Source: Acidimicrobiaceae bacterium (GTDB lineage Bacteria; Actinomycetota; Acidimicrobiia; Acidimicrobiales; RAAP-2). Taken from it: a stretch of 64,000 bases of DNA. The translations under genes were made by a program, and so were the position numbers. Below, piece after piece: positions 2,384 through 50,713 of this stretch (position 1 is the first letter of the stretch; every line of letters begins with the position of its first letter). A model generated the notes under the pieces. It did not search any database. It worked only from the letters and a program-made list of their open reading frames with translations, and was not told the origin of the DNA. The stretch is from the NCBI GenBank assembly GCA_003158855.1, contig PMLJ01000012.1:1516-65515 (forward strand), read 5' to 3'.

Positions 2384-3340
2384 ATGATGGACTCTCGCTA
2401 CGGCATCACCATTCCCTTCGACGGCGTTTCACTTCTCGAGCACCGGGACTGGTTCCACCGGCTCGCCGATCTCGGCTACACCGACGTCTGGTCCGCCGAG
2501 GTCGACGGCGCGGACGGATTCACGCCCCTGACCCTCGCCGCCGCGTGGGAAGCGCGGCTGCACCTGGGCGTCGCCGTGACGCCGGTCTACACGCGCGGTC
2601 CGGGTCTCATGGCCATGAGCATCGCCGCTCTCGCCGAGGTCGCCGGGGGCCGCTTCATCATGGGGCTCGGCGCGTCGAGCCTCCCGGTCGTCGAACGCTG
2701 GAACGGCATTGCCTACGACAAGCCCTACGCGCACACCCGCGACGTGCTCCGGTTCGTGAAGAAGGCGCTCGACGGCGAGAAGATCGACGAGGTCTTCGAG
2801 ACGTTCGAGGTGCACGGCTTCAAGCTCTCGCGCCCGGTGCTCGAACGCCCGCCCATACTGCTCGGCGCCCTGCGTCCGCGCATGCTGCGCCTCGCCGGCG
2901 AAGAGGCCGACGGGGCCATCCTCAACTGGCTCGCCGCCACGGACGTCGCCCAGTGCATCGCCGAGGTCGGAGCGGGCAAGATCATCGCCGCGCGCCTCTT
3001 CGTCATCCCGACCGAAGACGCCGACGCCGCGCGCTACATAGCCCGGCGGATGATCTCGTCGTACCTCACGGTCGCCACCTACGCCGAGTTCCACCGCTGG
3101 CTCGGGCGCGCCGAGCTCCTCCAGCCCATGTGGGACGCGTGGGCTGAGGGCGACCGCAAGCTCGCTAACGAGGCCATCCCCGACTCCGTCGTCGACGAGC
3201 TCATCATCCACGGCTCCTACGCCCAGTGCCGCGATCACGTCGCGCGCTTCATCGAAAACGGCGTGCAGATCCCCACCCTCGCCATTGTCCCCTTCGGTGT
3301 CGATCTGAAGGACGCCGTCGAGGGTCTCGCCCCGCGCTGA
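2384..3340 (+). CDS. LLM-class (luciferase-like) F420-dependent oxidoreductase
   Basis: GYTDVWSAE, GRFIMGLGAS and PILLGALRPRMLRLAGEEADG motifs; cofD/cofE occur in the same window. Confidence 0.85.
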   Translation: MMDSRYGITIPFDGVSLLEHRDWFHRLADLGYTDVWSAEVDGADGFTPLTLAAAWEARLHLGVAVTPVYTRGPGLMAMSIAALAEVAGGRFIMGLGASSLPVVERWNGIAYDKPYAHTRDVLRFVKKALDGEKIDEVFETFEVHGFKLSRPVLERPPILLGALRPRMLRLAGEEADGAILNWLAATDVAQCIAEVGAGKIIAARLFVIPTEDADAARYIARRMISSYLTVATYAEFHRWLGRAELLQPMWDAWAEGDRKLANEAIPDSVVDELIIHGSYAQCRDHVARFIENGVQIPTLAIVPFGVDLKDAVEGLAPR

Positions 3341-3726
3341 GCCGAGCCCGTTTCGAGAAACTCCGGAGTACCCGCGAACTTCGCGCGCCGCCGGGGTCGA
3401 GACGTGGTCGGTCGCCAGTTCGCTCGGCGTCGCCGCCCGAGTCCCCTAAGGCTCCCGTCCACGGTCCGCGCGCCTTCACCTCTCCTCGCACGGGCCTGAC
3501 GATGCGTCGCGCTTGGTCCCAACCGTGGCGAAGGGACTCGATGGGCATGACCTGCCCACGCACGAATCCGCCCATCCACGCCACTCTTCCTTCGAACTCC
3601 GCTTCGGCTTCACGGTCCCCCGCCAGGGACCACCCGCCTTGTCCGGCTCACTCTGCGCTCGCGAGATGGGCCGGGACCGGGGCTCCCCTTGTTCCCTACA
3701 CTTGTGGCGTGAACGATCGGAGCACC

Positions 3727-4233
3727 ATGGCCAAGAAGAAGAAGTCCCCCAAGAAGGTGAAGATCGGCGTCGTCGACACGATGTTCGCGCGCTACGACAT
3801 GGGCGCGGCGGCCAGCGCCGAGCTGGCGGAGTGCCCCGGCTACGGAAAGAAGTTCGAGGTCGTCGCCGTGACCGTGCCCGGGTTCAAGGACCTGGCGGTC
3901 GCCGCCAAGAACCTGATCGAGAAGGACGGCTGCTCGATCGTGGTGGCGCTCGGCATGCCCGGGTCCGCGCCCATCGACAAGCAGTGCGCCCACGAGGCCG
4001 CCCAGGGCATCATGCAGGCGCAGCTGCTCACCTCGACGCCGATCCTGGAGGTCTTCGTGCACGAGGACGAGTCTGACGATCCCAGGGTGCTCGCCTCGGT
4101 CTTCGAGAGCCGCTCGCGCAAGCACGCCCGAAACGCCTACTGGATGCTCTTCGAGCCCGAGCAGCTGCGCCAACGCGCTGGTCAAGGCGTGCGCCAGGGA
4201 TTCGGCGACGCCGGTCCCCTCGAATTCACGTGA
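3727..4233 (+). CDS. ribC: Archaeal-type riboflavin synthase (lumazine-synthase fold)
   Basis: IGVVDTMFARYDM, TVPGFKDLAVAAK.LIE..GC.IV.ALGMPG, CAHEA..G...AQL, EVFVHEDE and RAGQGVRQGFGDAGP are colinear with the methanogen riboflavin synthase as recalled. GGAG SD upstream. Confidence 0.9.
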   Translation: MAKKKKSPKKVKIGVVDTMFARYDMGAAASAELAECPGYGKKFEVVAVTVPGFKDLAVAAKNLIEKDGCSIVVALGMPGSAPIDKQCAHEAAQGIMQAQLLTSTPILEVFVHEDESDDPRVLASVFESRSRKHARNAYWMLFEPEQLRQRAGQGVRQGFGDAGPLEFT

Positions 4234-4305: not shown

Positions 4306-5514
4306 ATGCCCGAAGCCGTAATCGTCGCCACCGGCCGCACCCCGATCGGGCGCGCCTTCAAGGGATCGCTCGTCGACGTGCGACCCGACGACCTCGCGGC
4401 CCACGTCGTGCGCGCAGTGCTCGCGAAGATCCCCGAGCTCGATCCCCACACCGTCGAGGACCTGATCATGGGCTGCGGCTCGCCCGCCGGCGAATCCGGT
4501 TTCAACGTCGGGCGCGTCACGGCGATACTCGCCGGACTCGACAATGTCCCGGGGGTGACGGTCAACCGGTACTGCTCCTCGTCGCTGCAGACCATCCGCA
4601 TGGCCGCCCACGCCATCCGATCGGGCGAAGGCGACGTCTTCGTCGCCGCCGGTGTCGAGACCGTCTCGCGTTACGGGTCGGGCGCCTCGGACAGTGGCAA
4701 GGCCCTGAATCCGCTCTTCAGTGACGCCCTCGCGCGCACGCAGAGCCGTTCCGAGAAGGTGACCGTGCCCTGGACCGCGCAGCCCGGGCTCCCCGACATC
4801 TACATCGCCATGGGCCAGACCGCCGAGAACGTCGCCGAGTTGGAGAACGTCTCGCGTCTGGAGATGGACGAGTTCGCCGTGCGCAGCCAGGCGCTCGCCG
4901 TCGCGCACCAGGAGAACGGCTTCTTCGAACGTGAGATCATCCCCGTCACTCTCCCCGACGGCACCGTGATCTCCAAGGACGACGGCCCGCGCGCCGGCAC
5001 GACGCTGGAGAAGCTTTCGGCGCTGCTGCCGGTGTTTCGCGAGGGCGGCAAGGTCACGGCCGGCAACGCCTGCCCGCTGAACGACGGCGCGGCCGCCGTG
5101 GTCGTCATGAGCGACACCCGCGCGAAGGAACTCGGCCTCAAGCCCCTGGCGCGAATCGTCGCGAGCGGCGTGAGCGGGCTCAACCCCGAGATCATGGGGC
5201 TCGGCCCGATCGAGGCGTGCCGCCAGGCGCTGAAGCGCGCCGGACTCACCATCGACGACATCGACCTCGTCGAGATCAACGAGGCCTTCGCGGCCCAGGT
5301 GATCCCGTCGGCCAAGCACCTCGGGATCAGCCTCGAGAAGCTGAACATCCGCGGTGGCGGCATTGCGCTGGGCCACCCCTTCGGAATGACCGGGGCGCGC
5401 ATCATGACGACGCTGCTCAACTCGCTCGAGGACGCGGGTGCTCGCTACGGCATGGAGACCATGTGCGTCGGCGGCGGCCAGGGCATGGCGATGATCGTCG
5501 AGCGTTTGGACTGA
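4306..5514 (+). CDS. Acetyl-CoA C-acyltransferase (thiolase)
   Basis: TVNRYCSSS (catalytic Cys), NEAFAAQ, GHPFGMTG and MCVGGGQG motifs; strong SD. Confidence 0.95.
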   Translation: MPEAVIVATGRTPIGRAFKGSLVDVRPDDLAAHVVRAVLAKIPELDPHTVEDLIMGCGSPAGESGFNVGRVTAILAGLDNVPGVTVNRYCSSSLQTIRMAAHAIRSGEGDVFVAAGVETVSRYGSGASDSGKALNPLFSDALARTQSRSEKVTVPWTAQPGLPDIYIAMGQTAENVAELENVSRLEMDEFAVRSQALAVAHQENGFFEREIIPVTLPDGTVISKDDGPRAGTTLEKLSALLPVFREGGKVTAGNACPLNDGAAAVVVMSDTRAKELGLKPLARIVASGVSGLNPEIMGLGPIEACRQALKRAGLTIDDIDLVEINEAFAAQVIPSAKHLGISLEKLNIRGGGIALGHPFGMTGARIMTTLLNSLEDAGARYGMETMCVGGGQGMAMIVERLD

Positions 5515-10409: not shown

Positions 10410-12416
10410 GTGAGTACACCACCAACTGAAAAATCCGGCCTGAAGAAGTTCCTTCCAGGCGGCGACAAACCCATGGCGCCCGAGTCGCGCCGGCGCTTGA
10501 TCACGATCGCCATCGTGGCATTCGTGCTCGGGATACTGATCATTCCTTCGCTCTTCTCGAACAAGACCGTCAAGACCATCTCCTATTCCGCCCTGATCCA
10601 CGACGCCCGTCACTCTCAAGTGATTTCGGCGAGCATCAACACCTCCTCGGGCGTCATCACGGGCCAGTTGAGCAATGGCACCAACTACACCGCCAACGGA
10701 CCCGCTCCCATCCTCACCGACGAGGTCAGCACCTTTCAAACCAACAACGTCGTGGTGACCTTCGCCAATCCTTCGAGTTTCGCCTCCACCTTCCTCCCGT
10801 ACCTCATCTGGATCCTCATCTTCGTCGGATTCTTCGTTTTCGCGAACCGCCAGGCGAAGGGCCAGATGAACGGGATGATGTCCGTTGGCCGCTCCAAGGC
10901 CAAGCAGTTCAGCGAGGATCGCCCCAAGACCACCTTTGCTGACGTTGCCGGGTATCTGGGGGTCAAACAGGAGATCAGCGAGGTCGTCGAGTTCCTGAAG
11001 ACTCCCGCTCGCTACAAGGAGATCGGCGCCTTGATCCCCAAGGGAATCCTGCTCGTCGGCCCTCCCGGCACCGGCAAGACGATGCTGGCGCGCGCGGTCG
11101 CGGGCGAGGCGGGCGTCCCCTTCTTCTCGGTCTCGGGATCTGACTTCATGGAGATGTTCGTCGGCGTCGGCGCGAGCCGTGTCCGCGACCTCTTCGCCAC
11201 CGCCCGCAAGCAGTCGCCCGCGATCGTCTTCATCGACGAGATCGACTCCATTGGCCGCAAGCGTGGCGCGGGCGTCGGGGGCGGTCACGACGAGCGCGAG
11301 CAGACGCTCAACCAGATGTTGAACGAGATGGACGGCTTCGACCCCACCGAGGGCGTCGTCGTCATCGCCGCGACGAACCGGCCCGACGTGCTGGATCCGG
11401 CGCTGCTGCGTCCGGGCCGCTTCGACCGACAGATCGTTGTTCCCCTGCCCGACCTCGAAGAGCGCCTGCCCATCCTCCAGGTCCACGCCAAGGGCAAGCC
11501 GCTCGACCCCTCAGTGGACCTCGAGATGGTGGCCCGCGGGACGCCCGGGATGAGCGGCGCGGACCTGGCGAACCTCGTCAATGAAGCGGCCCTGCACGCG
11601 GTGCGCCGCCACTCTGAGACCATTGGCATGGAGGATTTCGAATCCGCCCGCGACCGGGTGATGATGGGCCAGCTGCGCGACACCATGGTGCTGAACGACG
11701 AGGAGCGCCAGCGCATCGCCTTCCACGAGAGCGGCCACGCGCTGCTCTCCTACGTCCTGCCCAAGACCGACCCCCTGCACAAGATCACGATCATCCCCAG
11801 GGGCATGGCCCTCGGCGTGACGATGACGCTGCCCGAAGAGGACCGCCACATCATGTCGCGCGAGCACCTCGAGGATTCACTCTGCATGCGCATGGGCGGA
11901 CGCGTCGCGGAGCTGCTCGTCTACGGCGACCTCTCGACGGGCGCCGCGGACGACCTGCAGCGCAACACCGAACTGGCCCGGCGCATGGTGCGCGAGTGGG
12001 GCATGTCGAAGGAGATCGGGCCAATGGCGTGGGGCGCCAACAACCAGGTGTTCCTGGGCGAGGACCTCATGCACACGCGCGACTACTCCGACCACACCTC
12101 CCAGGTAATCGACGATGAGGTTGAACGCATCCTGCGCGAGCAAGAGGCCCGGGCCATCGAAGTCCTCACGCTGCACCGCCGGGGCCTCGAGGCCGTGACC
12201 AGCGCGCTGCTCGAGCACGAAACCCTGGACGGCGAAACCGCGGCCCGTCTCATTGACGAGGCCCACGGCGAACCGGTGCACGCCCACGGAACCAAGACCG
12301 TGAGTTCACTCACTGGCGTCAACCGGGCCGTGGCCAAGAGCCCCAAGCCCGAGCCGGCGCTTTCGCCGGTCGCGACGACGCCGAACTGGCAGCCGCCTAC
12401 CCTACCCGCCGTCTAG
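10410..12416 (+). CDS. ftsH: ATP-dependent zinc metalloprotease FtsH
   Basis: Two TM helices, [17 protein letters not shown] ([20 protein letters not shown]), HESGH. GTG start with GGAGAG SD. Confidence 0.97.
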
Positions 12417-13766
12417 GGGAGCGACCACCGTCGTGCCGATCGGAGAGGTCGGCAGGGTGGTGGTCACGACCAGCGAAGGCTTGGAACCCGTGATGAGCAG
12501 CGTCGCGCCCTTCAACGTGGTGAGGCCGGCGAAGAGCCCGAGGATGCTCTCGGTGGCGTGTGCGCCCAACTGGGTCGAACTCGACGCGCTCTGCTGAGCC
12601 TGCTTGACGATGGTCGTGAATCTCACCGTGATCGCTTTCGACGACGTGTTGGTCACGGTCGCGGCGTCGAAGCCCTTGCCCGAGAAGTCGGCGATCAGGA
12701 AGTCGTTGGAGGGGGCGACCGGTGACGACAGGGCGAATCCGGCGCTCGATCCCACGGCGAGCGACGTGACGACGGCCACGTTCGACGTCAGGTGCACCGT
12801 GGCGTAACCGGCGACGGGAATCGCCGAGTTCGGGGTTATGACGACGTCGCCGCTGCTGTACGGAGCCACGGTCTGGATCTGAGGGGCGACCTTGTAGTTC
12901 GTGTTCGCCAAGCCCACGTTGACGACGACGTCCGCGGGAAACGCGCTGGTGTTCGTGACGCGTATCTGCGCGGTGGCCTGTGAAGCAGTCGTGACGCGGG
13001 GGAACCACACGCTCGTGGACGGTGAGCCGGCGCCGGAGTTGAAGGAGGTCACCGGGCCCGAACCCTGCACCCCGACGATGTCGATCGATCCGCGAAGCAC
13101 CTTCACGTGCACGCCGATGTTGGAGGTATTGACGATCTCGGCGCCCAGGTTGACCTCGAGCTGGGTGTGCGCCGCCACCGCCATGCCCTGGAAGGGCGCG
13201 GGGGCGCCGTAGCCACTCGTCGTGTAGGTGGCGATATTGAACACCGCCGCGGTCGCCGTCGGGTTGTAGATGCTGAGGTGCGCCGAGGAACCGACCGTCG
13301 AGTCAAAGCCGGTGGCGAACCAGTTCGTCACGCCGGCGAACGTACAGGGCGACTCGGCCGTCGCGTTCGCCGCGACTTCCTCGCCCACCACGCCGCCGCC
13401 GTTCACCTGCACGGCGACGGCGAAGTCGTTCCCCTTCGCGAGCGCCTGTGGCTGGACGCTGGCGGTCGCGTGCGCGGCCAGGGTGAGCGACGTCGCGGCA
13501 CGATTGGCGGTGTCCGAGACGACCACGACGTTGAGGGTCCGCGACGAGCTCGTGGTATTCAAGAACGTCACGTGTCCGAGCGCGTCGCCCTTGGCGCCGG
13601 TGAGGCCGGTGCAGTAGAGCGCCGTGGACTCCACGCCCTTGGACAAGGACAGCGACGTTGCCGGCAACGCCGAGTTGGCGGACTTGGACAGCGTGCTCAG
13701 GGTTCCGACGGCGATCAGCGAGACCGCGAGGACCAACAGCAGCGGCGCGCGACGCGGGCTACTCAC
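12402..13766 (-). CDS. DUF5719-like secreted/anchored beta-rich protein
   Basis: N-terminal TM, Cys-containing YCTG and SPC..AG.T.WF motifs, L.IYNP repeat; conserved position after the large GT2 gene. Confidence 0.7.
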   Translation of the reverse strand: MSSPRRAPLLLVLAVSLIAVGTLSTLSKSANSALPATSLSLSKGVESTALYCTGLTGAKGDALGHVTFLNTTSSSRTLNVVVVSDTANRAATSLTLAAHATASVQPQALAKGNDFAVAVQVNGGGVVGEEVAANATAESPCTFAGVTNWFATGFDSTVGSSAHLSIYNPTATAAVFNIATYTTSGYGAPAPFQGMAVAAHTQLEVNLGAEIVNTSNIGVHVKVLRGSIDIVGVQGSGPVTSFNSGAGSPSTSVWFPRVTTASQATAQIRVTNTSAFPADVVVNVGLANTNYKVAPQIQTVAPYSSGDVVITPNSAIPVAGYATVHLTSNVAVVTSLAVGSSAGFALSSPVAPSNDFLIADFSGKGFDAATVTNTSSKAITVRFTTIVKQAQQSASSSTQLGAHATESILGLFAGLTTLKGATLLITGSKPSLVVTTTLPTSPIGTTVVAPLDGG

Positions 13767-16700
13767 CTCGTTCCCTCCTCGCGTGTCGGGCAACGGCGGT
13801 CTTCCGACGTCCCGTGAACAGCCATTCAAGGCGCTGGATCATGCCGAACCCCAGCCAGACGAGGACCCAGAGGATCATGGTGAACAACGCCAGCAGTCCG
13901 TTCAGCGGGAACCGGCGCATCACCAGCTCGGCGGTGGCGCCGGTGCTCACGGCGCCCACCTTGTAGGTCGGGGCCCATCCGTACGAAGTGCTGCGCGGCG
14001 TCGCCTTTCCGTTCACGTCGAGGGTAAACGCGCTCGCCGGGGCGAGGCCGGCGACCACCGTCGCCATCGGGGCCACGGCGCCGGCGTTGGCGGTGCTGGC
14101 GAAGATCGGGGTCCACGCGGAACGGCCGGGCACCTGCTCGGAGACCAGTCCGTGGAACATCGGGTTGGAGTAGACCTCGACGGAGTTGGTCTGCAGCTCG
14201 AGCGCGAGGTCCGTCTGCAGACTGAGGGCCGTGGTGAGGCTCGTCGGCACCGGGCGCAGTGGCACTGACTGCACGCCCGAGAGTTCGGGCCCTGAAGCAT
14301 CCATGACGATGATCGTCGATATTCCCGCACTCGCGAGGAGCTGTCCCAGTTGCACGGTGCGGCCCTTGAGCGCCATCTGCAGCGACGAAAGAAGCTCGTC
14401 GGTCGTCGCGGAGTCCGGCGGCGAGAAGAGGGTGTTCCCCGACGGCAGGCCGTTGGTCGAGGTCGCGGCCTCGAGGCCCGGAGCCACCGACCACCCCTGC
14501 ACGGGAAGGACCGAGGGGTCGCCGAGCCACAGGACCCGGTACCCATTAGCCCCAGCCGGCGCCAGCGCGCTGAGCGATTCGGCGACGCTGGTGGTCGGCA
14601 GGTCGAAGCGGCCGCTCGCGAAGGTCACGAGGAAGGGAACGGTGGCGGCGACGAGGGCTGAAACGATGAGCCCCGCGAACACCTGTCGCCAGCCGAAGCC
14701 GGATTGACGAAGGTCGAGCTCGAGGGCGCTCACCCCGAGCCCGATAAGCAAGGCGATCATCACCGCGTAGAGCGCGAGCAGCATGTCGATGTCGGGGGCG
14801 AACGATCCCATCCAGTGATGGGCGTCGAGGGTGGCCACGATCAACGTCAAGGTGGCAATCGACGCCGCCTTGGTCGCGATGGTCCGGCGTTCGTGGCGAC
14901 AGAGCACGAGACCGAGCACCGCCGCCGCCGGCAGGAGCCACCCGAGCACGTTCGATCCGAACGCCCCGTCCGCACCTCGCAGCATCTCGCTGAAGGTCGG
15001 CGCGGACCACGGTCCCCTCGCGAGGCCGAATACCTCGAGGGCGCGCCGGCCCGCGAGCGCGACGTCGACGCTCATTGGCAGGAGGAAGATGGCCACGTTC
15101 ACCACCAGCGCCCCGAGCAGTCGCCACGGCCGGGCCTGCTCTTGATTCACATCACGTTCGAAGAGGCGCGCCAGCACCACGCCCACGATGATCAGTCCGA
15201 CGAGCACCAGCGTCGCGGGCGCCATGGCGCTCAGCAGCGCAATGATCATGATGGTGCCCATGCGCTGGCCCGCCTCGGTGGCGCGCCAGCCCCGGTGGCC
15301 AAAGGGCAGCGGCTCGGGATAAGGAAGCGAGCGGAACCCCGGAACGCGCAGGAGCTCGAACAGCCTGCGCACGACTGACGGGAAGCCCGCGAGGACGAAG
15401 AGCACGTCGATTCGACCCTGGCTGATCATGTTGAGGCCGAGGGGCAGCGCCATGAAGGCGACCGAGGCGATCACGCGCGCGCGGTTCGAGACGCGGCCCT
15501 TCAAGAGCCGCGCGACGCCGAGCGCCCCGATGGGTATGGACACTATGAGGGCCAGGCGCGGAAGTATCCCCATCCGTCCGAGGACGAAGGTCCCGGCGAA
15601 CCCGAGGACTCCGTAGCCGGGCATTCCCGGCGTTCCCGTCCCCACCCCGTTGGGCGACCACGAGGCGAAGAAGTGACGCCACGTCGTCCACCACGAGTCG
15701 AGCGGCGCGAGCCGGCCAACGAGGGGCAGGTGCATGGCAACGAGGTTTCGCGATCCGATGGCCCAGAGCACGAGCACCGCCAGGACGACCGTCGCCTGCG
15801 AGCGAAACGACGTGAGCACCCGCGAGGGGCGGTTGCGCAGCTCGAGGACGTGGCTTTCGGGGATCTCGTCGAACTCCTCGGCTTCCGAGAACGCGGCCGC
15901 GAAGCCCACGCCCTCGGCTTCGTCGTCCTCGGGCTCCTCCTCGGGCTCGTGCTCGGGGAGGATTCCGCGCGCCCGGTCGAGCCCGTCGCGCAGCAGCGTG
16001 AGGAAGAAGCGCTTCAAGCGGCTCGCGCCGCCAACCTGGAGCCGACGGAGTTCGCCGTCCGAGAGCACCCTGGTCGCCTGCAGTTGTCGACGTCGCTCGC
16101 GGATCTTCTTGCGATTGTGGAAGAGCCATCGCCACGAACCGACGATCGCGCCGATTCGGTCGGTGTCGCGTCCGAGCAGCGCCAGCATGAACTCCATGAG
16201 ATCCATGGCGAGGAGGTAGAAGAGGGTCGAGATGGTGTTGCGCGGGCCCCAGCCGGTGGCAACGACCAGCAGTTGGTGGCGTCGCTGGAGGTCCTGTCGA
16301 CTCGCCCGGCGGGTGCCCACCGCCGAAACCTGGCGCTCCCCGGTCGCGATGGTCTCGCGGTGGGCGACCTTCGCCGACGGCGCCACCACGATGCGCGCAC
16401 CCGCCACCTGGGCGCGCCAGCAGAGGTCGAGGTCCTCGCCGAGCACGGGAATCAGAGGGTCGAAGCCGCGAAGCGTCGCGAAGAGGTCCGAGCGAACCAG
16501 GGTGACGCCTCCGGGGGCGACGAAGACGTCGCGCTCGAGGTCCTGCTGGCCGTGGTCGATTTCGCCCGGCTCCACGCGCTCGTGCGCCACCCCGAAGCGG
16601 TCGCAGGTCTGGCCCACGTGCAGCAGGATGAGCGGATCCTCGTAGGCCACGATCTTGGGCGTGACGATGCCCGCGTTGGTCCGAAAGGCCGCCTCGACCA

Positions 16701-22015: not shown

Positions 22016-22053
22016 AACACTCGATGATACCCAGCGCCCCTAAGGTTTCGGAG

Positions 22054-22968
22054 GTGATCACCGTTCTCAGTGGTGGCGTTGGCGCCGCACGACTCCTTCG
22101 AGCCCTCAGCGGCGAAATCGAACCACGCGAGATTTCCGCCATCGTGAACGTGGGCGACGACCTGGTGATGCACGGGCTCACCATCTGCCCCGACCTCGAC
22201 ACCATCTCGTACACGCTCGCGGGGCTCAACAACGACGTACTGGGCTGGGGGCTGGCGGGCGAGACGTGGCGGGTCATGGACGAACTGGCGGGACTCGGGG
22301 GCGCCGCGTGGTTTCGCCTGGGCGATCGCGACCTGGCGACGCACCTCTACCGCTCGCAGCGACTGAGCGAAGGCGCGACCAAGACCGACGTCACCCGCGA
22401 ACTTTGCGAGCACTGGGGCGTCGAGATCACCCTGCTGCCGGTGACTAACGACGAGATCGCGACCGTCTTTGATACCCAGATCGGCGTACTCAGCTTCCAG
22501 GAGTATTTCGTGCGCCACCACCACGACGTGGTGGTGAAGGGCGTCTCGGTGCTCGGCGTCACCGAGTGCTCGCCCACCCACGAGGTCATCAGCGCCCTGG
22601 AGAAGAGCTCACGCATCGTGATCGCCCCTTCGAACCCGCTGATCTCAATTGATCCCATCCTCCAGGTGCCCGGCGTCAGCGAGATACTGCGCGAACGAAG
22701 AGATGACGTCATCGCGGTGTCGCCGATCGTCAACGGCGCCGCCCTGAAGGGTCCCGCCGACCGGCTCCTGATCGAACTCGGCCACGAGGCGACCTGCGAG
22801 GGGGTCGCTGCCTTCTACCAGGGCATCATCGGGACCTTCGTCATCGATGAGGTCGACGCCCGTCACGCCGCGAACATCGAATCTCGTGGTATCAAGGTTC
22901 GCGTGACCACCACGATCATGGCCGAGCCGGAGAACGCCCGGCGCCTCGCGCGGGCGGTGCTCGCGTGA
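22054..22968 (+). CDS. cofD: 2-phospho-L-lactate transferase (F420 biosynthesis)
   Basis: LSGGVGAA, NVGDD, CPDLDT, FRLGDRDLATH, IAPSNP and KGPAD motifs. Start GTG 22054 or ATG 22024. Confidence 0.95.
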   Translation: MITVLSGGVGAARLLRALSGEIEPREISAIVNVGDDLVMHGLTICPDLDTISYTLAGLNNDVLGWGLAGETWRVMDELAGLGGAAWFRLGDRDLATHLYRSQRLSEGATKTDVTRELCEHWGVEITLLPVTNDEIATVFDTQIGVLSFQEYFVRHHHDVVVKGVSVLGVTECSPTHEVISALEKSSRIVIAPSNPLISIDPILQVPGVSEILRERRDDVIAVSPIVNGAALKGPADRLLIELGHEATCEGVAAFYQGIIGTFVIDEVDARHAANIESRGIKVRVTTTIMAEPENARRLARAVLA

Positions 22969-23675
22969 ATGAGCTTCGGGTCATTCCCGTGCGCGGCGTG
23001 GGACCCGTTGCCGGGGGCGACGACCTGGTGACGCTGCTGCTCGACGCGCTCGACGCCCAGGGGCTCCCCCTCGAGCACCACGACCTCGTCATAGTCACGA
23101 GCAAGGTCGTCTCTAAGTCCGAAGGCCGGGTCGTCGACTTCGACGGCACCGAAGGGCACAAGGTCGCCCTCATCGAGCGGGAAGCCAAACGCGTGCTTCG
23201 ACGTCGAGGGCCGCTGCGAATCACCGAGACCGAGCACGGATTCATCAACGCCAACGCCGGCATCGACCTCTCCAACACCGTGGAGGGAACCGCGGTGCTG
23301 CTGCCCAAGGAGCCCGACCGCTCCGCTCGGCGCCTGCGCGCCGAGATTCGAAGGCGCCGTGGCGTCGACGTCGCGGTGGTCGTCACCGACACCTTCGGAC
23401 GCGTGTGGCGACAAGGGGTCACCGACGTGGCCCTCGGATCGGCGGGGATCATTCCGGTCCTGGACCTTCGCGGATCAGCCGACGCCAACGGACGCCTGCT
23501 CGACGCGACCGAGGTCGCCATCGTCGACGAGATCGCGGGCGCCGCGAACCTGGTGCTCGGAAAGGCGATGGGCACGCCCTTCGCCGTGCTTCGCGGCCTC
23601 GACGAATCGTATTTTGGCGAGGGTTCGGTGGCGAAGGACGTCATTCGCTCCGCGAACGAAGACCTCTTTCGTTAG
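22965..23675 (+). CDS. cofE: Coenzyme F420-0:L-glutamate ligase, stand-alone
   Basis: TSKVVSKSEG, ANAGIDLSN, DTFGRVWRQG and VDEIAGAA motifs. No C-terminal nitroreductase domain. Confidence 0.93.
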   Translation: MNELRVIPVRGVGPVAGGDDLVTLLLDALDAQGLPLEHHDLVIVTSKVVSKSEGRVVDFDGTEGHKVALIEREAKRVLRRRGPLRITETEHGFINANAGIDLSNTVEGTAVLLPKEPDRSARRLRAEIRRRRGVDVAVVVTDTFGRVWRQGVTDVALGSAGIIPVLDLRGSADANGRLLDATEVAIVDEIAGAANLVLGKAMGTPFAVLRGLDESYFGEGSVAKDVIRSANEDLFR

Positions 23676-48717: not shown

Positions 48718-49529
48718 CGAGACGAGGCCAATCGCGCGAACTCCTCCAGGGTCAACTCTTCTGGCCGGCGCGTCTCGGCGACGTCGGCGCGTTCGAACAC
48801 TCCCTCGGTGACCCAGCCCGCGAGCGAGCGCCGGAGCATCTTTCGACGCTGGGCGAACGAGGTTCGTATCACTTCGAAGAGCGCGGACTCGCTCACCAGC
48901 TCCGGGTCGACGCGCAGCGTCTCCCTTCGAATGATCGACACCAGCGCCGAGTCCACGTTGGGCTTGGGGACAAAGACGTTGGGACCCACTTTTCCCACCA
49001 CGCGCGCGTCGGCGAAGTACTGGACCCTGAGCGACGCCGCGCCGTAGGCCTCGTCGCCGGCCTGGGCGGCGAAGCGATCGCCCACCTCCTTTTGCACCAT
49101 CACGAGCATCCGCGTGATTAGGGGCTCTGCTTCGAGCAGGTGCAGAACAAGCGGCGTCGCCACGTTGTACGGCAGGTTCGCCACGACGATCGCCTCGCGG
49201 CCTCCGAGAATCTCGTCGTAGTTCGCGTTCAGGGCGTTGGCGTGGTGAACGGGCACCCCGTAGGGGGCGACCACCGACGTAAGCGGCCCGAGCAGGTACT
49301 TGTCGATCTCCATGGCGCGCACCTCAGCCCCGGTCTCCACCAGCGCCAGGGTGAGCGAGCCGAGTCCCGCGCCGATTTCGAGCACCAGGTCGCCCGGTCC
49401 GACGTCGGCGAGGCGCGCAATTCGTCGAACGGTGTTGGGATCGACGACGAAGTTCTGACCGAGGGCTCGCGATGGTTTGAGTCCGTGCTCCTGCATGAGA
49501 GCGACGAGTTCGGTGCGGGTATGGGTCAC
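48714..49529 (-). CDS. rsmA: 16S rRNA m6,2A dimethyltransferase
   Basis: LGQNF, EIGAGLG, ANLPYNV, MVQKEV, FAQRRKML motifs. Confidence 0.97.
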   Translation of the reverse strand: MTHTRTELVALMQEHGLKPSRALGQNFVVDPNTVRRIARLADVGPGDLVLEIGAGLGSLTLALVETGAEVRAMEIDKYLLGPLTSVVAPYGVPVHHANALNANYDEILGGREAIVVANLPYNVATPLVLHLLEAEPLITRMLVMVQKEVGDRFAAQAGDEAYGAASLRVQYFADARVVGKVGPNVFVPKPNVDSALVSIIRRETLRVDPELVSESALFEVIRTSFAQRRKMLRRSLAGWVTEGVFERADVAETRRPEELTLEEFARLASSR

Positions 49530-50713
49530 CAAGAGACCTTGACGCGAATGACGCCCTTGGCGAGCGGCGCCAGCCGGGCGAACTCAGTATCGGAGAGGTC
49601 GACGACGCGATCTCCGCGGGCAGCCTCCTTGTCGGTCACCGTGCAGACGACGGCCCGTCCGGTCGCCAGATCACGAACCGTGATTCGCGTGCCGTAGGGA
49701 AGGAACCACGTGGCGCAGTGGCCCGGGATGTACGAATACCAGGTTGCCGCGCCGATGCGGTAGTCGTTGATCTTCGAGGGCTTGCGAGTCGTCGTCGTCA
49801 CCGGCACCGTCGTCGTGGTCGTGGAGCTGGTAGAGGTCGTCGTCTCACCCGGGTACGTCGTCGTGGTTGTCGCCGGCACCGTCGTCGTGGTTGTCGCCGG
49901 CACCGTCGTCGTGGTTGTGGGTCTGGTGGAGGACAAGGACTTGGGCGGCGACCTCTTCACGCTCACCGTCACGACGGCGTGCCACGCAACGAGCGTGCCC
50001 GCCGCGGGTGACTGGCGCGCCGCGCTGGTCCAGGAGTTGTTGGACGCCCCCGCGCCCACGGCTCGAAGCACCAGCTGGCTCGAATGCATGACCGCGATGG
50101 CCCGGGCCCTGCTCATACCCACCACGTTCGGCACCCGGCGCTTGGGGTGAGGAGCGCTCATGGTCGTCGTGATGGTCACGGTCGCGTGCCAGGCGACCAC
50201 GGTACCCGGAGCCGGCGACTGGCGCGCTACCGCCACCCACTTCGCGTCGGCGCTGCCGGGCCCTCGGGTCTTGAAGAAGAGCTGCGCGGACTTCATGGCG
50301 GCGTAGACCCTGGTCCTCGTGAGCCCGATCACGCGCGGCACGCGCCGTGAGGCGTGCACCGCGCTCATCGAGGTCGTGAGGGTCACCGTCGAACGCCACG
50401 GGACGAGGGTGCCCGCCCCCGGGAGCTCGTGGGTCACCGACACCCACTTCGCGTCGGCGCTGCCGGGCCCTCGGGTCTTGAAGAACAGCTGCGCGGCCTT
50501 CATGGCGGCGTAAACCTGGGCCCTCGTGAGGCCGACGACGTTGGGCATGTGCACCGGGGCGTGATTCGAGGAGGCGCCCGCGTCAGGCGTAGTGAATACC
50601 AGTGAACTCATCAACAGGATGACCACGGTAAAAAGTGACAACGGTCGACAAAGCGCCCGCCGAGTCAGTGTCCTCAGTTCTCCACCCTCCGTCTGGACAA
50701 CGAGTTGTTCCAA
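49526..50713 (-). CDS. Secreted protein with three PASTA-like repeats, Thr-rich linker and RlpA-like DPBB domain
   Basis: MPNVVGL / VPRVIGL / VPNVVGM ... QSPA.GT.V repeats; C-terminal GAATWY...LPYGT.ITV...GR.V.C.VTD...R.VDLS. Start codon uncertain. Confidence 0.78.
   Translation of the reverse strand: MEQLVVQTEGGELRTLTRRALCRPLSLFTVVILLMSSLVFTTPDAGASSNHAPVHMPNVVGLTRAQVYAAMKAAQLFFKTRGPGSADAKWVSVTHELPGAGTLVPWRSTVTLTTSMSAVHASRRVPRVIGLTRTRVYAAMKSAQLFFKTRGPGSADAKWVAVARQSPAPGTVVAWHATVTITTTMSAPHPKRRVPNVVGMSRARAIAVMHSSQLVLRAVGAGASNNSWTSAARQSPAAGTLVAWHAVVTVSVKRSPPKSLSSTRPTTTTTVPATTTTTVPATTTTTYPGETTTSTSSTTTTTVPVTTTTRKPSKINDYRIGAATWYSYIPGHCATWFLPYGTRITVRDLATGRAVVCTVTDKEAARGDRVVDLSDTEFARLAPLAKGVIRVKVSW
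49856..49918. repeat. 24-bp tandem repeat, about 2.6 copies (encodes TTTTTVPA on the minus strand)
   Basis: cgtcgtcgtggttgtcgccggcac at 49856 and 49880, partial copy at 49904. Confidence 0.9.
50234..50530. repeat. About 90-bp direct repeat at 207-bp spacing (PASTA domain duplication)
   Basis: 45 identical bp at 50234-50278 and 50441-50485, with near-identity continuing to 50323 and 50530. Confidence 0.9.

Follow-up and report, generated by a model that had tools for sequence, protein, structure and literature searches.

The window analysed here is a stretch of 64,000 nucleotides that belongs to a 118.5-kb contig of an Acidimicrobiaceae metagenome-assembled genome (MAG; 2.72 Mb in 50 contigs, with an estimated completeness of 96.5%). 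Positions 3727..4233 of its forward strand (+) hold an open reading frame of 168 codons plus stop, the translation of which begins MAKKKKSPKKVKIGVVDTMFARYDM. It is assigned as the coding sequence of an archaeal-type riboflavin synthase (RibC), i.e. the pentameric enzyme with the lumazine synthase fold, on the basis of the TIGR01506 profile, of the match to PDB entry 2b98 and of the predicted fold. The gene lies between that of an LLM-class F420-dependent oxidoreductase (2384..3340, +; TIGR03841, 280.8 bits) and that of an acetyl-CoA C-acetyltransferase, or thiolase (4306..5514, +; NF005890, 686 bits), and a PPK2 gene is also found in the neighbourhood. The rib operon is on another contig, and the statement of a preliminary description, made from the window only, that the gene stands alone is thus borne out. 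Its GC3 value (0.93) is the same as that of the neighbouring genes. In a distant part of the window (49526-50713, −) a secreted-looking protein is encoded with three repeats of approximately 65 residues, a Thr-rich TTTTTVPA linker, encoded by a tandem repeat of 24 nt (49788-49932), and a C-terminal domain; the Val-rich open reading frame at 49767-50150 (+) is the antisense shadow of this gene.

Alignment of the regions upstream of ribC in 14 orthologous loci revealed just two blocks in common, namely GATCGGAGC and CTACAC(T). The former contains the GGAG sequence at 3719..3722 (+), assigned as the Shine-Dalgarno sequence, 4 nt 5' of the ATG at 3727, and the latter corresponds to TACACT at 3697..3702 (+), a candidate −10 element of the actinobacterial TANNNT type. 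Conservation of the Shine-Dalgarno sequence supports the start codon at 3727 and, therefore, translation of the Lys-rich stretch that follows it, in agreement with the N-terminal extension initially proposed. Conservation of the TACACT element suggests that the gene has a promoter to itself and a short leader. A scan of the surroundings of the gene for strict sigma-70 consensus promoters and for terminators gave no match, and the Rfam search (gathering thresholds) found two tRNAs and nothing else in the window; an FMN riboswitch or any further RNA element was detected neither there nor in the region of the rib operon.

The trimeric riboflavin synthase (RibE) is the type usually found in bacteria. 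The archaeal pentameric enzyme is unrelated to it, being a paralogue of lumazine synthase (RibH), and the identity of the protein had to be weighed against that of a divergent lumazine synthase (RibH2-like), or of another lumazine or flavin binder with the same fold, in an organism in which the last step of the pathway is missing or riboflavin is imported. The fold and the Pfam superfamily are indeed common to lumazine synthase: with Pfam models, only the shared DMRL_synthase superfamily is detected (56 bits), with no PF00677 Lum_binding barrel domain in the protein, and one of the Arg residues conserved in the RibC family is replaced. However, the NCBIfam equivalog TIGR01506 (ribC_arch) matches over its entire length (model positions 1-151 of 151, protein residues 12-165) with 172.4 bits (cut-off 100.55), while the score with the lumazine synthase equivalog TIGR00114 is 31.2 bits, below the cut-off of 84.6. 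The top natural sequence match in the PDB is the Methanocaldococcus jannaschii riboflavin synthase (2b98, E 3e-48), as opposed to E values of 7e-4 or higher for lumazine synthases, and sequence identity is 53% with the M. jannaschii enzyme and 20% with the RibH of the same genome. An AlphaFold model of the monomer, obtained with 31 homologues as the input, has a pLDDT of 88, with low confidence for the first 10 residues and for the C-terminal segment 158-168, as modelled in isolation. The first Foldseek matches to this model are 2b99 and 2b98 (target-normalised TM 0.95, rmsd 1.2-1.3 Å), and lumazine synthases rank below them (TM 0.66-0.75). In phylogenetic reconstruction the protein is found inside the RibC tree along with the crystallized M. 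jannaschii enzyme, and the genome's own RibH forms a very long outgroup branch. Thus, profiles and phylogeny place the protein among riboflavin synthases rather than with RibH, and the resemblance to the archaeal enzyme along the whole length, as initially proposed, is confirmed. A bona fide ribH (150 bits) exists in the genome, and an intact set of ribD, ribBA and ribH genes would make little sense in an organism lacking the final enzyme, so that a lumazine synthase or a mere binding protein at this position is hardly credible.

The residues that characterize the family lead to the same assignment. Across 38 family members from outside the Acidimicrobiales, 28 positions show a conservation of at least 85%, including the motifs DT.F, TVPG.KDL, G..G....D, VH.E, R...H..N and AG.G.RQG, and the window protein maintains 27 of them. 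The sole exception is R36 of the M. jannaschii enzyme, an Arg found in 95% of the other members, which is replaced by A47 (window 3865-3867), two residues before TVPG; across the window's family, the one that bears the Lys-rich tail, this position is occupied by Ser, Ala or Thr. With the M. jannaschii enzyme (PDB 2B98/2B99; Ramsperger et al. 2006, cited in PMC13151069) taken as the model, the protein should form homopentamers whose active sites lie at the contacts between subunits. The two enzymes share the TIGR01506 assignment, the 53% identity over the core and the fold, and are expected to catalyse the same reaction. They differ in that the window protein belongs to a mesophilic bacterial host of high GC content, carries the 11-residue Lys-rich tail and has Ala in place of R36; at the level of the gene, the Shine-Dalgarno sequence is of the bacterial type, the candidate −10 element is present and the partners are the bacterial RibD, RibBA and RibH.

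The tail comprises residues 1-11 (MAKKKKSPKKV; 3727..3759, +), as delimited by the start of the TIGR01506 match at residue 12 and by the low pLDDT values, and the conserved core of the protein begins at K12-I13. Basic, low-complexity N-terminal tails of variable length (approx. 10-30 residues) are found in most of 80 loci of the same lineage, as exemplified by L077, which reads MMAKKNSEKKSSKKKSSKKKSSKKAPKVL. They are absent from 18 Acidimicrobiales genomes of other families in which the N-terminus is readable and the protein starts with MDR-IGVVDT, and from the M. jannaschii enzyme, which starts with MTKK. As judged from these sequences, the tail is an addition confined to the window's own family (f1), its character being conserved and its sequence not. 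A distinct N-terminal feature was noticed in the RibH proteins of genomes that carry RibC, which have approximately 20 extra residues compared with those of RibE-type genomes (loci L110-L155): members of the window's genus have an acidic extension with the sequence MTSTSETEFDPSVGEVIRAQVGEYLEG (C48 14150-14689), that of several other carrier families starts with MTSSDATAL..RVG, and the RibH of RibE-type relatives starts approximately 13 residues before the core. It has been considered that the Lys-rich tail of RibC and the acidic extension of RibH might hold the pentameric enzyme and lumazine synthase together, which, if true, would represent a convergent electrostatic re-invention, after the enzyme swap, of the 'heavy riboflavin synthase' channelling complex of Bacillus. 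The proposal was weakened by the finding that the RibH extensions are present in most carrier families and the Lys-rich tail in family f1 only; because the extension is found also where RibC has no tail, the charge-pairing complex is kept as a low-probability idea and, even when counted jointly with the non-archaeal origin of the family discussed below, it is judged unlikely.

The genome as a whole provides the metabolic context. Two genes with the DMRL_synthase fold are present, the archaeal-type gene and the true ribH, which is on contig C48 in the order def-fmt-rpe-ribD(11957-12943)-ribBA(12943-14166)-ribH. RibD, RibBA and RibH all score above the respective NCBIfam equivalog cut-offs. A six-frame search for PF00677 (Lum_binding, diagnostic of RibE) found no match anywhere in the genome, and the same search gave matches in 11 control genomes, which answers the question raised at the outset of whether a canonical riboflavin synthase is also encoded. 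No candidate other than the archaeal-type gene is present for the final step of the riboflavin pathway, which is complete except for RibE. Furthermore, the stop codon of ribD overlaps the ATG of ribBA, which closes the ribE slot of the operon; the sizes of the open reading frames in a Lum_binding-bearing relative from another family fit the order ribD-ribE-ribBA-ribH, and the ribD/ribBA junction appears to be the place where relatives carry ribE. With ribD, ribBA and ribH retained and no other riboflavin synthase detected, the protein would catalyse the dismutation of 6,7-dimethyl-8-ribityllumazine to riboflavin.

The distribution of the two enzyme types was determined at several taxonomic levels. 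In the window's genus, ribC_arch is found above the cut-off in 32 of 37 genomes and Lum_binding in none of the 37, single-contig assemblies included. When one genome for each of 24 other families was inspected, ribC_arch was present in a single one (G043) and Lum_binding in 22, G043 being among those that lack it; one further genome of this sample (G050) has neither riboflavin synthase nor ribH and looks auxotrophic for riboflavin. In an even sample of the order (301 genomes), ribC_arch was detected in 38 genomes, corresponding to 23 of 185 genera and at least 12 GTDB families. Lum_binding is absent from 24 of the 26 carriers outside the genus, and ribH is kept in all 26. In an even sample of the phylum (401 genomes), only two genomes contain ribC_arch, both of the window's genus. 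The two types are, therefore, close to mutually exclusive across the order, although exclusivity is not absolute, since both are found in the two remaining carriers, which belong to family f73 and have an estimated contamination of 5-6%. In these dual carriers (G168:C3:48806-49336 and G218:C319:5416-5946) the Lum_binding match is in a 434-residue open frame away from ribH, and they could be replacement intermediates, contain a fused or different protein, or result from contamination. On a poorly resolved RibH tree the trait is clustered, with 4 changes compared with 12.6 in shuffles, a result compatible with a single origin. Such a complementary phyletic pattern points to non-orthologous displacement and, along with the lack of Lum_binding and the empty ribE slot, bears out the horizontal acquisition with displacement of RibE put forward in the preliminary description.

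These data also bear on the possibility that the archaeal-type protein acts as a second or accessory enzyme beside a canonical RibE, which would be encoded in the part of the genome missing from the assembly. The incomplete, 50-contig state of the MAG leaves room for such a gene, and the coexistence of the two types has precedents in the f73 genomes, in Alphaproteobacteria MAGs (L179/L180) and in the published Streptomyces davaonensis RibE2, an extra copy according to PMC11039241. However, neither the absence of Lum_binding from the whole genus and from nearly all carriers elsewhere in the order, nor the closure of the ribE slot by the ribD/ribBA overlap, is what would be expected of an organism with two enzymes, and this explanation is regarded as very unlikely.

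The genomic neighbourhood provides information on the origin and age of the gene. Close relatives were found in at least 495 species-level genome records, and the top 80 of them have 76-92% amino-acid identity to the window protein. The nearest genomes are those of uncultured Acidimicrobiales/Acidimicrobiaceae, and many of their titles point to peat, bog or palsa. The thiolase gene is the most conserved neighbour: in 63 of the 74 loci that could be evaluated it is the next gene downstream. Genes for PPK2 and/or the LLM oxidoreductase are found upstream of ribC at what is a conserved chromosomal site. Archaeal DNA mis-binned into an actinobacterial MAG had to be considered, given the nature of the assembly and the finding of archaeal-looking ribC genes in bins with bacterial labels, i.e. 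L216, on an 8.2-kb contig labelled Bifidobacteriaceae, which groups with Methanomassiliicoccales, and L251, on a 2.1-Mb contig labelled Veillonellaceae, which groups with a Thermococci MAG; both are likely cases of mis-binning or mislabelling. The window gene, however, is inside a 118.5-kb contig, surrounded by actinobacterial genes with the same GC3, and the same gene arrangement is seen again in 80 independent genomes, one of which is a 2.4-Mb chromosome, so that synteny effectively refutes mis-binning and leaves it a negligible probability. The GC3, which does not differ from that of the adjacent genes, and the conserved synteny also led to the rejection of a recent transfer.

A maximum-likelihood tree was calculated with 88 sequences, most of the representative ones being without taxonomy (support values are given as UFboot/SH-aLRT). 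All Acidimicrobiales copies form one clade (92/83) with family-coherent subclades. It falls outside a well-supported euryarchaeal clade (96/88), to which every archaeal sequence of the sample belongs, 23 in total and drawn from Methanococcales, Methanomassiliicoccales, Thermoplasmata, Methanomicrobiales, Methanotrichales, Thermococci and Hydrothermarchaeota. The occurrence of one clade, the conserved site, the matching GC3 and the sequence conservation indicate an old acquisition followed by vertical inheritance under purifying selection, and the acquisition was probably a single one, as far as can be deduced from the sequences. The backbone of the tree is a polytomy, within which the Acidimicrobiales clade is placed, and it favours no particular donor or root. 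An origin of the gene from archaea is, therefore, suggested by the overwhelmingly archaeal distribution of the family and not by the tree. The converse view, that pentameric riboflavin synthases include long-standing bacterial clades and that the family is non-archaeal in origin, shares with the RibC-RibH tether the low probability assigned above. A genome scan with P0055, from a candidate Streptomyces-like clade, as the query found no close genome. A distant archaeal-type RibC homologue with 46% identity to P0055 was observed in another bacterial phylum, in a MAG of Candidatus Dormiibacterota (L262), which suggests further sporadic bacterial occurrences.

Taking all this information into account, it is highly probable that the gene encodes a functional archaeal-type riboflavin synthase, the sole one in the genome, which was acquired horizontally and displaced the resident ribE. 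In the proposed sequence of events, the ancestor of a subset of Acidimicrobiales would have gained the gene by horizontal transfer; the gene would have settled, with its own promoter, beside genes of fatty-acid metabolism, and the resident ribE would then have been deleted from a ribD-ribE-ribBA-ribH operon. In the resulting pathway, the RibH encoded on the other contig would make 6,7-dimethyl-8-ribityllumazine, two molecules of which would be dismutated by RibC to riboflavin and 5-amino-6-ribitylaminouracil, with the latter being re-used by RibH.

That 5-amino-6-ribitylaminouracil is also the precursor of F420 had led to the suggestion that the archaeal type was retained through a coupling to F420 biosynthesis, by supplying this compound to FO synthase, or to the flavin demand of ApbE. 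The genome does contain cofD (22024-22968, +; TIGR01819, 307 bits), cofE (22965-23675, +; TIGR01916, 227.5 bits) and FO synthase genes, and an LLM oxidoreductase gene is upstream of ribC in 53 of 69 evaluable loci. It is, however, the immediate neighbour of ribC in no more than 24 of the 69 and absent within 2.6 kb upstream in 16, and relatives exemplified by L029 have a gene for an acyl-CoA dehydrogenase between the two, so that the LLM enzyme is not an obligatory partner of RibC. Moreover, cofD and cofE are 18 kb from ribC and not clustered with it, ApbE is approximately 40 kb away, the FO synthase genes map to other contigs, and neither the Rfam search nor the alignment of the 14 upstream regions revealed a shared regulatory element. 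Every riboflavin synthase, RibE included, regenerates 5-amino-6-ribitylaminouracil, so the chemistry offers no reason to prefer the archaeal type, and F420 is made by many actinobacteria that possess RibE. None of the links initially proposed, i.e. to cofD and cofE, to the upstream LLM enzyme, to ApbE or through the by-product, is upheld by these observations, and the coupling appears decidedly improbable. As for FO synthase itself, two strong cofH-type matches were noticed, of which the one at C29:72244-74442 is an apparent cofG-cofH fusion (FbiC-like) and the other (C10:1247-2287) is a second copy at the start of its contig.

The enzyme family, its structure and the paralogy with lumazine synthase are textbook knowledge (PMC13151069, PMC10366380). 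Compared with the bacterial trimeric enzyme (RibE/RibC-alpha, PF00677), the archaeal type catalyses the same reaction at the same position of the pathway with an unrelated sequence and fold and as a pentamer instead of a trimer, with pentacyclic intermediates of opposite stereochemistry in the two enzymes (PMC13151069). An archaeal-like riboflavin synthase, RibE2, is also known from the roseoflavin rosB cluster of Streptomyces davaonensis and S. berlinensis, where, according to PMC11039241 (citing Jankowitsch et al. 2012), it is an additional copy beside the normal RibE that serves antibiotic biosynthesis and was attributed by its authors to horizontal transfer. The two cases, compared by description only, have in common an archaeal-type riboflavin synthase in an actinobacterium, but that of the window is the only such enzyme, serves primary metabolism and has become fixed throughout a lineage. 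The closest full-length representative found outside the Acidimicrobiales, P0007 (63% identity), belongs to Alphaproteobacteria MAGs, the homologues of which in L179/L180 are 57-59% identical to the window protein; a sister relationship of the P0007 group was seen in a quick tree only and not in the careful one. These MAGs differ from the window genome in that RibE is kept beside the archaeal type. In L180 (3473-5477) the archaeal-type RibC gene is divergent from that of an adjacent RibBA paralogue with an N-terminal excisionase-type HTH domain, and the pair may constitute a second, separately regulated rib module in a genome that also encodes RibE.

Several representatives of the family were observed to have additional domains or extensions. 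P0026, P0028, P0035, P0036, P0045, P0047, P0052, P0070 and P0071 are apparent natural fusions of RibC with a lumazine-synthase-like domain (approx. 250-330 residues), with RibC first in most of them and the RibH-like domain first in P0071, and P0011 and P0013 have Pro-rich N-terminal extensions of 220-250 residues.

A full-text literature search found nothing on an archaeal-type riboflavin synthase in Acidimicrobiales. Both the family and its occurrence in actinobacteria were already known, and no new enzyme, chemistry or regulatory principle is revealed; what is new is the complete, lineage-wide replacement of an enzyme of primary metabolism. It represents a well-documented natural experiment of non-orthologous gene displacement in an essential vitamin pathway, and shows that the pentameric enzyme type reaches beyond archaea. 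The lineage also supplies bacterial, mesophilic variants of a scaffold that protein-cage design has already exploited. From a practical standpoint, metabolic reconstructions and auxotrophy predictions that consider RibE only would wrongly score these organisms as riboflavin auxotrophs, when this uncultured clade of peat and soil Acidimicrobiales runs a hybrid pathway in which bacterial RibD, RibBA and RibH are combined with an archaeal-type final enzyme.
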